DNA from: an uncultured Bacteroidaceae bacterium
GTDB taxonomy: Bacteria; Bacteroidota; Bacteroidia; Bacteroidales; GCA-2748055
Length of the DNA stretch: 64,000 nucleotides
Assembly (NCBI GenBank): GCA_964526475.1
Contig: CAZGKF010000001.1
Span: 12,138 to 76,137, forward strand
Direction: 5' to 3'
Positions 4,906 to 6,243 of the stretch are shown piece after piece. The notes under the pieces were generated by a model. That model was given only the letters and a program-made list of their open reading frames with translations. It did no database searches and had not been told where the DNA came from. Numbering within the stretch: position 1 is the first letter of the stretch; each line of letters opens with the position of its first letter. The position numbers were made by a program, and so were the translations under genes.

Positions 4906-5880
4906 TCAGGTTTTTTTCTTATCCATATTAAATGAATCTTTTGCCCAGTTTAATGGGTTATTTATAATGTATTGCTGAATTCTGTAAAATTCCTTTTCAT
5001 TCCTGATGATATGGTCATGAAATCGTAATTGCCAGCGTGATATGCCTGGGGTATTGTCCATTTCGTTCATTCGCCTGGATGAGAATGTTTTTAACGCACG
5101 GACAAATTCAAATATTCCGTGACGTGATTGCGATTGTTTTGAATCCAATGGTGTGGGCGTGGGTGGGGGTGGGGGTGGGTGTAGGGATTGGAACGGGAAC
5201 GTTTGGGGGGACGGATTTGGATTCGGATTTGGATTCGGATTTGGATTCGGATTTGGATTCGTAGAGACGGGTTTGAAACCCGTCTCTACAAACCCATCAC
5301 GCCGATCAAACCCATCCCGCCGATCAAACCCATCCCGCCGATCAAACCCATCACGCCGATCAAACCCATCACGCCGATCAAACCCATCACGCCGATCCAT
5401 ATCATCCCAACGATCCATTCCATCACGCCGATCCATATCATCCCAACGATCCATTCCATCCCGCCGATCAAACCCATCACGCCGGTCCATTTCCCGCCGG
5501 TCCATTTCCCGCCGATCCATTTCCCGCGGGTTTATTTCCCGCCAATCCATCCCATCCCGCCGATCCATTTCGTCCCATTCATTAACAATGGTATTGATTT
5601 TTTGGTGCGAATTATCAATAATCATTATTCCATGAATATGGTTTGGCATTATTATAAATGTATCCAATTGCAGATTGCGGTAATGATTTATCAGATCGAA
5701 CCAACAGTGTTCTACAATATGTCCATATTCATTCAAAATCATTTTCCCTTTTTCAATTTCCCCCAGAAACGGTACACGGTTCCTGGTGCAAATGGTAATA
5801 AAATATCGTCCGTCAGATGTGTAATCCCAATGCTGCAACCGGGTGGTCTCAATTCGATATTTATTTTTAAACAAGGTCAT
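4906..5880 (-). CDS. IS200/IS605-superfamily HUH/Y1 transposase-like protein (RAYT-like, COG1943 type) with a large low-complexity insertion
   Basis: The N-terminus reads YFITICTRNR...IMPNHIHGIMII, which contains the HUH motif. The C-terminus reads WQLRFHDHIIRNEKEFYRIQQYIINNP. The middle 140 aa or so is DRRDGF/DRREM, NP and P/T repeats. Confidence 0.75.
   Translation of the reverse strand: MTLFKNKYRIETTRLQHWDYTSDGRYFITICTRNRVPFLGEIEKGKMILNEYGHIVEHCWFDLINHYRNLQLDTFIIMPNHIHGIMIIDNSHQKINTIVNEWDEMDRRDGMDWREINPREMDRREMDRREMDRRDGFDRRDGMDRWDDMDRRDGMDRWDDMDRRDGFDRRDGFDRRDGFDRRDGFDRRDGFDRRDGFVETGFKPVSTNPNPNPNPNPNPNPNPSPQTFPFQSLHPPPPPPTPTPLDSKQSQSRHGIFEFVRALKTFSSRRMNEMDNTPGISRWQLRFHDHIIRNEKEFYRIQQYIINNPLNWAKDSFNMDKKKT
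5151..5580. repeat. In-frame microsatellite block inside the RAYT-like gene
   Basis: G-rich run at 5151-5186 (poly-Pro/Thr on the minus strand). Eight GGATTT/GGATTC hexamers at 5213-5260 (the Asn-Pro dipeptide repeat). About 17 units of 18 or 15 nt at 5290-5580 (AAACCCATCACGCCGATC and variants, encoding DRRDGF/DRREM). Confidence 0.9.
5261..5289. repeat. Perfect 29-nt palindrome (14-bp arms) between the two microsatellite arrays
   Basis: GTAGAGACGGGTTT-G-AAACCCGTCTCTAC. It encodes VETGFKPVST on the minus strand. Confidence 0.95.
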
Positions 5881-6040
5881 ATCTCTCCACTAAATGCTTT
5901 TTCCAAAATGATAGTTTTTTTTTGAATTTTGCAAATTTAAATGATTTTTTCAGAGAAATTAACAGGGGAGCTCAGTGATCCCTCTGGATCAGGATTACTT
6001 CGCTGCGCTCAGTGATCCCTGGGGGGGAGAAGCTGATCAC

Positions 6041-6154
6041 CCGGCAAAAAACCCTTCGGGCTCCTTTTGTTTTATGCCAGCCCAGCGCTTATGCTGCGCA
6101 TTGCGCTGGGCTGGCATAAAACAAAAGACCCGCTTACGCGGGTTTTTTTGCCGG
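6041..6154. repeat. GC-rich nested palindrome cluster abutting the tRNA-Ser 3' end
   Basis: The outer arms are CCGGCAAAAAACCC (6041-6054) and GGGTTTTTTTGCCGG (6140-6154). The inner hairpin has a perfect 25-bp stem, 6064-6088 pairing with 6103-6127. A small hairpin, CCCGC-TTAC-GCGGG, lies at 6129-6142. Confidence 0.85.
6117..6142 (-). terminator. Likely intrinsic terminator of tRNA-Ser
   Basis: On the minus strand CCCGCGTAAGCGGG is followed by TCTTTTGTTTT, starting 14 nt after the tRNA CCA end. Confidence 0.6.
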
Positions 6155-6155
6155 G

Positions 6156-6243
6156 TGGCGGAGGAAGAGGGATTCGAACCCCCGGTACCTGACGGTACAA
6201 CGGTTTTCAAGACCGCCGCATTCGACCACTCTGCCATTCCTCC
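6156..6243 (-). tRNA. tRNA-Ser (anticodon UGA), CCA encoded
   Basis: The reverse complement reads GGAGGAATGGCAGAGTGGTCGAATGCGGCGGTCTTGAAAACCGTTGTACCGTCAGGTACCGGGGGTTCGAATCCCTCTTCCTCCGCCA. The 7-bp acceptor stem is GGAGGAA/TTCCTCC, the anticodon loop is CT-TGA-AA, there is a long variable arm, and the T-loop is GGTTCGAATCC. Confidence 0.95.

Follow-up and report, generated by a model that had tools for sequence, protein, structure and literature searches.

A reverse-strand open reading frame in a 64,000-nt stretch of DNA from an uncultured Bacteroidaceae bacterium (the window) raises the question of how a gene resembling a transposase can hold, within its coding sequence, a perfect palindrome surrounded by about 430 nt of in-frame repeats, and whether such a gene is still intact. 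The original prediction regarded it as a RAYT-type Y1/HUH gene containing a hairpin of the type bound by such enzymes, with arrays on either side that make its length hypervariable, and took the arrangement to be possibly special.

Gene, reading frame and fold

The frame is real, as judged from the ORF list and the repeat finder TRF, and both the N-terminal segment MPNHIHGIM, with the HUH region, and the C-terminal segment WQLRFHDHIIRNEKEFYRIQQYIINNP are present in its product (Table 1). In alignment A1, P79, H81 and H83 are invariant, as are W283, Q284, F287 and H290 of the C-terminal half, and Y304 is nearly so. The core of the AF2 model has a pLDDT above 90 (94-98 at residues 21-90 and 89-96 at residues 251-310), and Foldseek searches with this model matched the TnpA proteins of ISDra2/IS608 and the E. 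coli TnpA_REP (PDB: 4ER8) with E-values of about 4e-4 to 1e-3. The protein thus combines a HUH motif and a catalytic tyrosine on the C-terminal helix with a TnpA-like fold, the two halves of which are separated by the β3/αC surface loop, at residues ~92-250 between a strand (81-88) and a helix (256-275) of the model.

Because this loop splits the domain, the full protein scores only 19.2 bits with the Pfam profile Y1_Tnp (PF01797; gathering cut-off 23), as against 24.0 bits when the loop is left out. NCBIfam NF047646 (REP_Tyr_transpos) matches the full protein in two stretches with 60.8 bits, and the protein without its loop in one stretch with 69.8 bits, covering profile positions 7-132 of 146; the equivalog cut-off of 80 bits is not reached even then, yet this is by far the best-scoring family. 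The corresponding score for the IS200 family (NF033573) is 16.6 bits, where 55 are required. The gene should be annotated as intact in spite of its weak profile scores.

The suspicion that the expected tyrosine reads F-H in this protein proved wrong, and a loss of the catalytic residue can be rejected: phmmer pairs Y304 (QQ-Y-IINNP) with Y115 of 4ER8 (VD-Y-IYINP), and the F-H dipeptide sits in a separate conserved motif, WQLRFHDH, which lies opposite W94-Q95-P-R-F-W99-E100-H101 of the E. coli protein. The RAYT motif WQxRFx[DE]HxxR is preserved here, with W283, Q284, H290 and R293 identical to the GTAG-contacting W94, Q95, H101 and R104 of 4ER8 (residue list: Fig. S11, PMC6006769), D289 replacing E100 and H288 replacing W99. 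Judged by these alignments, the HUH, the GTAG-binding WQxRFxDHxxR motif and the catalytic tyrosine are all in place. Comparisons with four homologous loci (L042, L043, L047 and L049) gave dN/dS values of 0.11-0.25 for the catalytic halves at dS of at least 1, which indicates that purifying selection acts on them.

These features agree with a published group. Quentin, Siguier, Chandler and Fichant (2018; BMC Genomics 19:475, PMC6006769) defined a RAYT subclass 2.4 by NH[IFV]H / WQ / YIxNNP (their Table 1), by a long "double-foot" REP (5' GT[AG]G ... C[TC]AC 3') placed in frame between HuH and Y, and by a β3/αC loop whose length and sequence vary greatly and which contains short repeats; its hosts are Bacteroidetes, Cyanobacteria and Chlorobi, and its equivalent in Bertels et al. 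2017 (PMC5581495) is RAYT group 4. A further published mark of the subclass is an 8-aa insertion where helix αB ends. The present gene has NHIH, WQ and YIINNP, a variable, repeat-bearing insertion between β3 and αC according to AF2 and TRF, and an in-frame double-foot REP, so that motifs, fold and catalytic residues together support the RAYT-type identification of the original prediction.

Table 1. Positions of the gene, its parts and one neighbour in the window
Feature	Position	Strand	Basis
RAYT / TnpA_REP gene of subclass 2.4, 324 aa	4906..5880	-	intact frame; ORF list
N-terminal half of Y1 fold, aa 1-92	5605..5880	-	PNHIHG motif; alignment; pLDDT
HUH (H81-I82-H83)	5632-5640	-	PNHIHG motif
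Left array, 15 in-frame units of 18, 15 and 30 nt (DRRDGF/DRRDGM/DRWDDM/DRREM)	5290..5565	-	TRF; unit listing
Perfect 29-nt double-foot REP palindrome GTAGAGACGGGTTT(S)AAACCCGTCTCTAC, translated VETGFKPVST	5261..5289	.	sequence; ssDNA fold
Right array (AATCCAAATCCG) x 4, perfect, = (NP)8, adjoining the palindrome	5212..5260	-	TRF, 100% matches
Degenerate Pro/Thr-rich tract (SPQTFPFQSLHPPPPPPTPTP), decayed, older-looking repeats	5150..5211	-	TRF
C-terminal half of Y1 fold, aa 251-324	4909..5130	-	4ER8 alignment; alignment A1; pLDDT
Helix αC HGIFEFVRALKTFSSRRMNE	within 4909..5130	-	
WQLRFHDH	5011-5034	-	4ER8 alignment
Catalytic Y304 in YIINNP, codon TAC	4969-4971	-	4ER8 alignment
tRNA-Ser(TGA), immediately upstream of the RAYT gene (context only)	6156..6243	-	ARAGORN; Rfam tRNA, 60.3 bits

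The palindrome and its conservation

The palindrome GTAGAGACGGGTTT-G-AAACCCGTCTCTAC is perfect, as originally described, and has the in-frame double-foot form GTAG-AGACGGGTTT-S-AAACCCGTCT-CTAC, in which both strands show the GTAG foot of REPs. Its predicted folding energy as single-stranded DNA is -14 to -16 kcal/mol (z between -6 and -7), a value equalled by none of 200 shuffled sequences. The surface loop of this gene hence carries, in frame, a copy of the type of hairpin on which such enzymes act, and by analogy with relatives the hairpin is probably the cognate substrate-type sequence of the enzyme. An Rfam search of the palindrome gave nothing at the gathering score, only sub-threshold matches to miRNA-like hairpins (5252-5298), on which ground a known structured RNA can be discarded; annotation of the palindrome as a terminator or small RNA should be avoided.

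A genome-wide search, which the original prediction had proposed, did recover further copies: there are three in all, each inside a RAYT-like gene or pseudogene, the other two belonging to pseudogene paralogues in which the palindrome is still perfect. No copy with up to 3 mismatches was found in this genome outside these three genes, so that copies of this REP neither flank the gene nor are dispersed in the genome. Around the paralogue on contig C9 there are two flanking copies, both degenerate, of the palindrome that it carries inside. The possibility that a GC-rich hairpin cluster (5965-6155) is a flanking REP of the gene was rejected, the cluster being single-copy and devoid of a GTAG foot; its sole other match is a 28-nt segment on contig C60. 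Extragenic copies of the palindrome do occur in four other Bacteroidales genomes (G234, G270, G107 and G035); it flanks a RAYT gene in G234 and G107, and copies are dispersed away from RAYT genes in G234 and G270.

A search for homologues of the protein gave 3647 hits. To survey homologues, 80 loci were collected by a metagenome scan with the patterns K[TS]FS[SA]R[RK][IM]N and MPNH[IFV]H[GC]I, both of which lie outside the loop and are independent of the palindrome; palindromes were counted in the 65 intact ORFs, with 210 nt of N-domain DNA serving as control. Loop palindromes of at least 11 bp are present in 55 of the 65, as compared with one of 65 for the control region; strict GT[AG]G...C[CT]AC feet were found in 43 ORFs and perfect palindromes in 31, and about 10 of the 65 are without a loop REP. 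This bears out the statement in the original prediction that family members often have GTAGAGAC...GTCTCTAC in the linker, which has also been published (PMC6006769, section 13, Table S1). Among 42 distinct palindromes, 97.3% of the cells are Watson-Crick pairs, stem positions 8-14 showing 3-4 types of pair. Relative to L042, L043, L047 and L049 the palindrome is identical but for its central base, although dS is at least 1. The perfection of hairpins whose cores differ between lineages, at saturation of synonymous sites elsewhere, indicates that the hairpin is kept at the level of DNA. The retention of perfect hairpins (~50 of 65) exceeds what would be expected of a purely neutral passenger. 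Further copies within 1.5 kb of the gene were detected at 13 of the 55 loci.

Given this conservation, one might take the in-frame REP for a working cis-element, which the enzyme would recognise in its own gene as an ssDNA or mRNA hairpin and thereby limit its own expression, or else for a protected "master copy" able to accompany the gene and, after transfer, to re-seed a REP family. Near-universal perfect palindromes at one loop position in homologues only 30-60% identical, the unchanged sequence at saturated dS, an internal copy that is more constant than the flanking ones, the confinement of the REP to genes in this genome and the persistence of perfect palindromes in both pseudogenes are all consistent with such a role. 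Nevertheless, we consider it unlikely, since the REP is dispensable, being lost in one allele (P0015) with a core 100% identical to that of another (P0009) as well as missing from the ~10 intact homologues; since recurrent re-insertion, conversion from other copies or repair within the hairpin can keep palindromes perfect without selection; and since the loop was judged peripheral to the catalytic and DNA-binding sites by the authors who described it (PMC6006769). A related, and likewise doubtful, proposal is that the internal REP is a stable "home copy", kept perfect so that enzyme and substrate are inherited or transferred together, possibly with self-sensing, and that the arrays are a running record of foot processing, with half-REP units arriving beside the foot and subsequently decaying outward. 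If this were true, loop length would report the recent activity of the enzyme in a lineage. A subfamily with its own substrate hairpin in the reading frame is in any event a natural place to test self-recognition.

Repeat arrays and the growth of the loop

TRF resolves the tract into an 18-nt unit repeated 10.9 times (5289-5484), a 15-nt unit repeated 5.9 times (5480-5571), a 12/6-nt unit (5212-5261; 4.2 copies of 12 nt with 100% match) and five copies of GGTGGG (5150-5179), which encode the Pro/Thr run. On the DRRDGF side a hand count gives 15 units, of which twelve have 18 nt, two have 15 nt and one has 30 nt, close to the "about 17" of the original prediction. As stated there, every block is a multiple of 3 and the frame is preserved; unit changes therefore alter length but never frame, and an on/off switch by phase variation is rejected for this intact gene. 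The tract is also open in other frames, which accounts for the overlapping ORFs at 5153..5635(+), 5188..5925(+), 5037..5264(+) and 5286..5480(-); the overlapping calls in 5037-5925 arise from the repeats and should be so treated in annotation.

Several observations connect the arrays with the hairpin. The six units of the left array nearest to the palindrome are near-identical and the distal ones more diverged. Of the 31 loops with arrays in the homologue survey, 26 have them touching or overlapping the palindrome, and several units include a palindrome arm. This adjacency is partly forced, the loop being short and the sole permissive place. In the present gene the 18-mer and 12-mer units match the palindrome arms, by eye, at 9/11 and 8/11 positions; a derivation of such units from the arms is suggestive only, and we make no claim of it for this gene. 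The 18-mer was found in this gene alone in a search of the genome, the three close paralogues of which carry different arrays. The hypervariable length proposed at the outset applies between paralogues and, in a sister lineage, between near-identical orthologues, the loops of which range from 27 to 66 aa at core identities of 96-100%. At ~199 aa, the loop of the present gene is about three times the family median of 69.

Tandem duplication of short units has lengthened the loop on both sides of the hairpin. Its cause is probably the hairpin itself, as the adjacency and the gradients suggest: the hairpin would promote local slippage or unequal exchange, with new units arising beside it when replication stalls or the GTAG foot is nicked and older units decaying outward, and selection would spare in-frame products only. 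The loop would be a tolerated passenger region and no working part of the enzyme. Taken together, we hold it to be probable that the gene is a RAYT of subclass 2.4 / group 4, that its arrays stem from slippage or exchange promoted by the hairpin and that the loop is a tolerated passenger.

It is quite improbable that the length of the tract, as distinct from its existence, is an assembly artefact in which three paralogous arrays in one short-read MAG were collapsed, expanded or chimerically joined. The fragmentation of the genome into 100 contigs, the six near-identical 18-mers of the array and a homologous array that runs to the end of contig C26 would all be in keeping with such an error, but the gene lies 17 kb within a 140-kb contig and has unique sequence to either side, ~430 nt of repeats leave the frame intact, a rare outcome of a random mis-join, and similar or longer loops (139-209 aa) are present in independent assemblies. 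An exact 24-mer from the boundary of the loop and the N-domain matched no other metagenome contig.

Scarcely credible, finally, is selection of the loop as protein, in which VETGFKPVST and the charged or proline-rich repeats would form a functional tether or a module for interactions and the palindrome in the DNA would be incidental, for although nearly all of the 120 closest homologues keep VETG[FL]KPV[SC]T, the frame in which the foot is read is strongly biased (39 vs 4) and AF2 places two moderate-confidence helices at the start of the loop (residues 91-134), the peptide changes completely across the family (VETQNFASLQ, VETRLIASLP, VGAGFKPAPT, CRDAMHCVS and others) with the DNA symmetry always kept, the third codon positions of the palindrome are invariant where dS is at least 1 elsewhere in the gene, the same sequence is extragenic in other genomes, residues 136-231 have a pLDDT below 50 and the loop is predicted to be disordered, and the arrays are entirely different between close paralogues; the covariation data have already refuted this reading for the most part.

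Relationship to known systems

The IS200/IS605 TnpA proteins (IS608, ISDra2) resemble the present protein in fold, being its top Foldseek matches, and act on subterminal DNA hairpins. They differ in that the IS hairpins are at the ends of the element, outside the gene, and in their Y motif, Y[IV]ENQ as opposed to YIINNP. Homology among the three paralogous copies is confined to -29 to +6 around the ORF, and no terminal hairpins were found around these copies; as IS200 motifs are also absent, IS200-like mobility is not favoured.

Short GC-rich palindromes translated at permissive surface sites are known from in-frame REPs and Rickettsia palindromic elements (RPEs) in unrelated genes (Di Nocera et al. 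2013, PMC3733652). Their occurrence in host genes is sporadic, however, whereas in the present case it is the gene of the transposase that is the recipient, at a site that does not vary within the family.

The E. coli TnpA_REP / RayT (YafM; PDB: 4ER8; Messing et al. 2012, PMC3479197) shares the Y1/HUH fold (Foldseek TM 0.60 on target), a catalytic tyrosine that lines up with Y304 and a substrate-type hairpin that begins with GTAG, and is set apart by the tryptophan (W99) that is His in the present protein. The E. coli enzyme belongs to subclass 2.2; it is a protein of 165 aa with a short β3/αC loop and no REP within its gene, and the E. coli REPs have a single foot, a bulged stem and hundreds of copies.

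With subclass 2.4 the correspondence extends to the REP, in that GTAGAGACGCAATGCATTGCGTCTCTAC, given for Chlorobium chlorochromatii in Table S1 of PMC6006769, is the consensus of the palindromes in the paralogues on contigs C9 and C11 of this genome. The core of the REP in the present gene (GGGTTT-S-AAACCC), on the other hand, is absent from that table; the protein has 324 aa as against a published median of 194; this copy is without the flanking REPs; and the genome has seven family members, two of them pseudogenes, where the published mean is 1.5 copies per genome. The arrangement is thus not special in the sense initially entertained: it has been known since 2018 as the defining peculiarity of the subclass, of which this gene is a large but ordinary example. 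The present analysis adds to that description the growth of arrays at the feet of the hairpin, a more than two-fold difference in loop length among near-identical alleles and the possibility that the REP may be confined to genes within a genome, and these three additions leave the classification as it stands.

Architecture and family affinities of the focal gene

The focal RAYT (TnpA_REP) gene is a single open frame of 324 codons on the reverse strand (window 4906-5880), in which the first 92 and the last 74 residues form the halves of a Y1/HUH transposase and about 158 residues of simple sequence lie between them. The HUH motif reads PNHIHG and the C-terminal part HGIFEFVRALKTFSSRRMNE...WQLRFHDHIIRNEKEFYRIQQYIINNP, and the intervening arrays and palindrome (see Table) are all in frame. 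Other frames are open across the repeat tract too, and this accounts for the overlapping mechanical ORFs. Recovery of the ORF, the TRF arrays and the palindrome shows that the original prediction of an HUH gene with in-frame repeats around a 29-nt palindrome was accurate as a description; its interpretation, a hairpin of the kind on which RAYT enzymes act, was right in substance. As single-stranded DNA the palindrome folds with -14 to -16 kcal/mol, and 0 of 200 shuffles fold equally well.

Table. Features of the focal gene, its flank and its pseudogene paralogues
Feature	Location	Remarks
GGTGGG run	window 5150-5179	TRF
12-nt x 4 array	window 5212-5261	perfect; TRF
29-nt palindrome	window 5261-5289	perfect; GTAGAGACGGGTTT-S-AAACCCGTCTCTAC
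18-nt array	window 5289-5484	TRF
15-nt array	window 5480-5571	TRF
tRNA-Ser	window 6156-6243	upstream of the focal gene
Pseudogene paralogue	C26:43678-44098	in-frame stops and frameshifts; palindrome perfect
Pseudogene paralogue	C60:2001-2811	in-frame stops and frameshifts; palindrome perfect

The full protein scores below the cut-offs of both Pfam Y1_Tnp (19.2 bits versus 23) and NCBIfam REP_Tyr_transpos (60.8 versus 80) because the loop splits the domain. With the loop removed, Y1_Tnp rises above its cut-off to 24.0, and a single, uninterrupted match to the RAYT model spans its profile positions 7-132 of 146 at 69.8 bits, still below the cut-off of 80. In an AlphaFold2 model drawing on 47 homologues, residues 21-90 and 251-310 have a pLDDT of 89-98, and residues 136-231 one below 50; Foldseek matches the model to ISDra2 TnpA, IS608 TnpA and E. 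coli TnpA_REP (PDB: 4er8). The suspicion that the catalytic tyrosine had been replaced by F-H is not borne out, as Y304 of the QQYIINNP motif aligns with the catalytic Y115 of 4er8. The WQLRFHDH stretch aligns with W94-Q95-P-R-F-W99-E100-H101 of the same structure, the part in contact with the REP's GTAG foot (residue list in Fig. S11, PMC6006769), with four of the six GTAG-contacting residues identical and one conservative. Judged by these alignments, the focal enzyme looks catalytically complete.

Between the RAYT start and the tRNA-Ser gene, at window 5965-6155, lies a GC-rich cluster of hairpins that includes a perfect stem of 25 bp. The cluster is single-copy in the genome except for a 28-nt match on contig C60; it has no GTAG foot and is thereby ruled out as the REP of the focal gene. 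All three copies of the focal lineage (on C1, the contig of the window, C60 and C26) adjoin tRNA genes. On C60 and C26 the stop is followed after about 170 nt by a tRNA on the other strand, and homology between the C1 and C60 copies is limited to -29 to +6 around the ORF.

Constraint on the loop palindrome

Two peptide patterns, both outside the loop, retrieved 80 metagenome loci, 65 of which have an intact ORF in which both motifs are present. In 55 of these 65 the loop holds a palindrome with 11 or more paired bases; a control stretch of N-domain coding DNA (210 nt) from those genes holds one in only 1 of 65. Strict GT[AG]G...C[CT]AC feet are seen in 43 loop palindromes, and pairing is perfect in 31. 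Across 42 distinct palindromes (37 from metagenome loci and five from own-genome paralogues) Watson-Crick cells amount to 97.3%, with the outer seven pairs near constant and positions 8-14 showing three or four pair types each. The encoded peptides differ completely (VETGFKPVST, VETQNFASLQ, VETRLIASLP, VGAGFKPAPT, CRDAMHCVS...), with the DNA symmetry kept. Between the focal gene and four loci (L042, L043, L047 and L049) the catalytic halves show a dN/dS of 0.11-0.25 at a dS of at least 1, and the 29-mer is identical bar its centre base. This retention of symmetry despite peptide change, taken together with the constancy of the 29-mer at such dS, places the constraint on the nucleic acid rather than the peptide. 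The foot reads GTA/GAG in 39 cases and nGT/AGA in four; the remaining frame would yield a TAG stop.

Some homologues (P0055, P0056, P0058, P0063, P0072 and P0100) have, besides the copy between HUH and Tyr, an extra in-frame copy of this palindrome peptide (VETGFKPVS...) in an N-terminal-domain loop (FGKIA-VETGFKPVST-...MILNEYG). The RAYT loop of locus L078 (metagenome contig Ga0302253_1003944) holds an in-frame perfect palindrome of 72 nt with a 36-bp stem, in which GTAGAGACAGGGCATGC... is present as two copies, one nested in the other, with the REP duplicated symmetrically on both arms.

Dispersal of the REP and turnover of the loop

The genome that holds the window (3.24 Mb in 100 contigs, 37.6% GC) has the 14-mer GTAGAGACGGGTTT at three sites, every one within a RAYT-like gene, namely the focal gene and the pseudogene paralogues on C60 and C26; the focal palindrome survives here only intragenically. 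Four more diverged, intact paralogues of 215-343 aa (on C62, C11, C9 and C15) each carry a loop palindrome of their own, joined on C11, C9 and C15 by tandem arrays of their own. Two degenerate copies of its own internal palindrome flank the C9 gene, and CCCTGCTATTGTA comes after each of them. Four of 300 further genomes from this order have the focal palindrome. One of the four, G234, has nine copies within 9 kb around a RAYT gene (C1:2099474-2108548 of that genome, L032): two in the loop, one just before the start, one just after the end and five nearby. Two copies follow the RAYT gene in G107, and in G270 five are spread over as many contigs, none of them within 1.5 kb of a RAYT. These flanking and dispersed copies indicate that the palindrome behaves as a REP elsewhere. 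The extragenic copies in G234 have a single foot (only ...CTAC), and its better-preserved loop copy combines a GTAG foot with a compensatory change in the core (GAGACAGGTTTCAAACCTGTCTC).

On the left of the focal palindrome the six adjoining 18-mers are near-identical and distant units diverge to DRRDGM, DRWDDM and DRREM; on the right, four perfect 12-mers are followed by a decayed Pro/Thr tract. The left units of the three close paralogues are homologous but vary in number and length (C1, 18 nt; C26, 19 nt), and the focal unit count should be read with caution since contig C26 terminates inside the homologous array. The arrays on the right show no relation to one another (AATCCAAATCCG, AAAACG and AAAAAC). 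On C60, (AAAACG) x 9 stands where the focal gene has its (NP)8 array, and the 19-nt unit of C26 forms a 57-nt, 19-aa super-period. TRF arrays are found in 31 of 51 palindrome-bearing loops, abutting or overlapping the palindrome in 26 of the 31, and in several loops a palindrome arm is included in the repeated unit, leaving peptide traces such as PVSTEPVSTE and VETRNFTDVETRNFTD. The hairpin probably nucleates slippage or unequal exchange, with selection retaining only the in-frame products. In a large-scale analogue, locus L090 (1041-4132; metagenome contig Ga0209487_1003750) has the N-terminal half of a RAYT gene in five tandem copies (448-496 nt, 94-97% matches), with one complete gene after the five. 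Every copy begins at a REP that shortly precedes the ATG and extends to the loop REP. This looks like unequal exchange between flanking and intragenic REPs.

In a sister lineage, eight orthologues with 96-100% identity over 155 core residues have loops of 27-66 aa with different unit numbers, implying that the loop turns over much faster than the gene; one of the eight alleles has lost the palindrome. Such a clean loss weighs against a cis-element, whereas the very high rate at which perfect loop hairpins are retained favours one; the internal hairpin may be either a cis-element or the tolerated passenger suggested in 2018 (PMC6006769). The alleles P0009 and P0015 are 100% identical over the 155 core residues and differ by the presence versus absence of the REP and right-hand array, providing a clean natural "deletion" control for functional tests.

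Relationship to TnpA_REP subclass 2.4

Quentin, Siguier, Chandler and Fichant (2018; PMC6006769) divided the TnpA_Y1 proteins into subclasses. Subclass 2.4, equivalent to group 4 of Bertels et al. 2017, is marked by the motifs NH[IFV]H, WQ and YIxNNP, has a median length of 194 aa, and includes among its REPs "double foot" forms with a 5' GT[AG]G and a 3' C[TC]AC. The focal gene fits this subclass in its NHIH, WQ and YIINNP motifs, its in-frame double-foot palindrome in the loop and its short repeats. Table S1 of that study gives GTAGAGAC-type REPs 25 times and lists for Chlorobium chlorochromatii GTAGAGACGCAATGCATTGCGTCTCTAC, the consensus of the palindromes in two paralogues of the window's genome; the focal core GGGTTT-S-AAACCC is absent from it. 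A REP set in frame between HuH and Y, in a loop of variable length, is the published hallmark of subclass 2.4 (PMC6006769), and the focal gene is a member with an unusually long loop and an unlisted REP core, this REP being confined to genes in its own genome.
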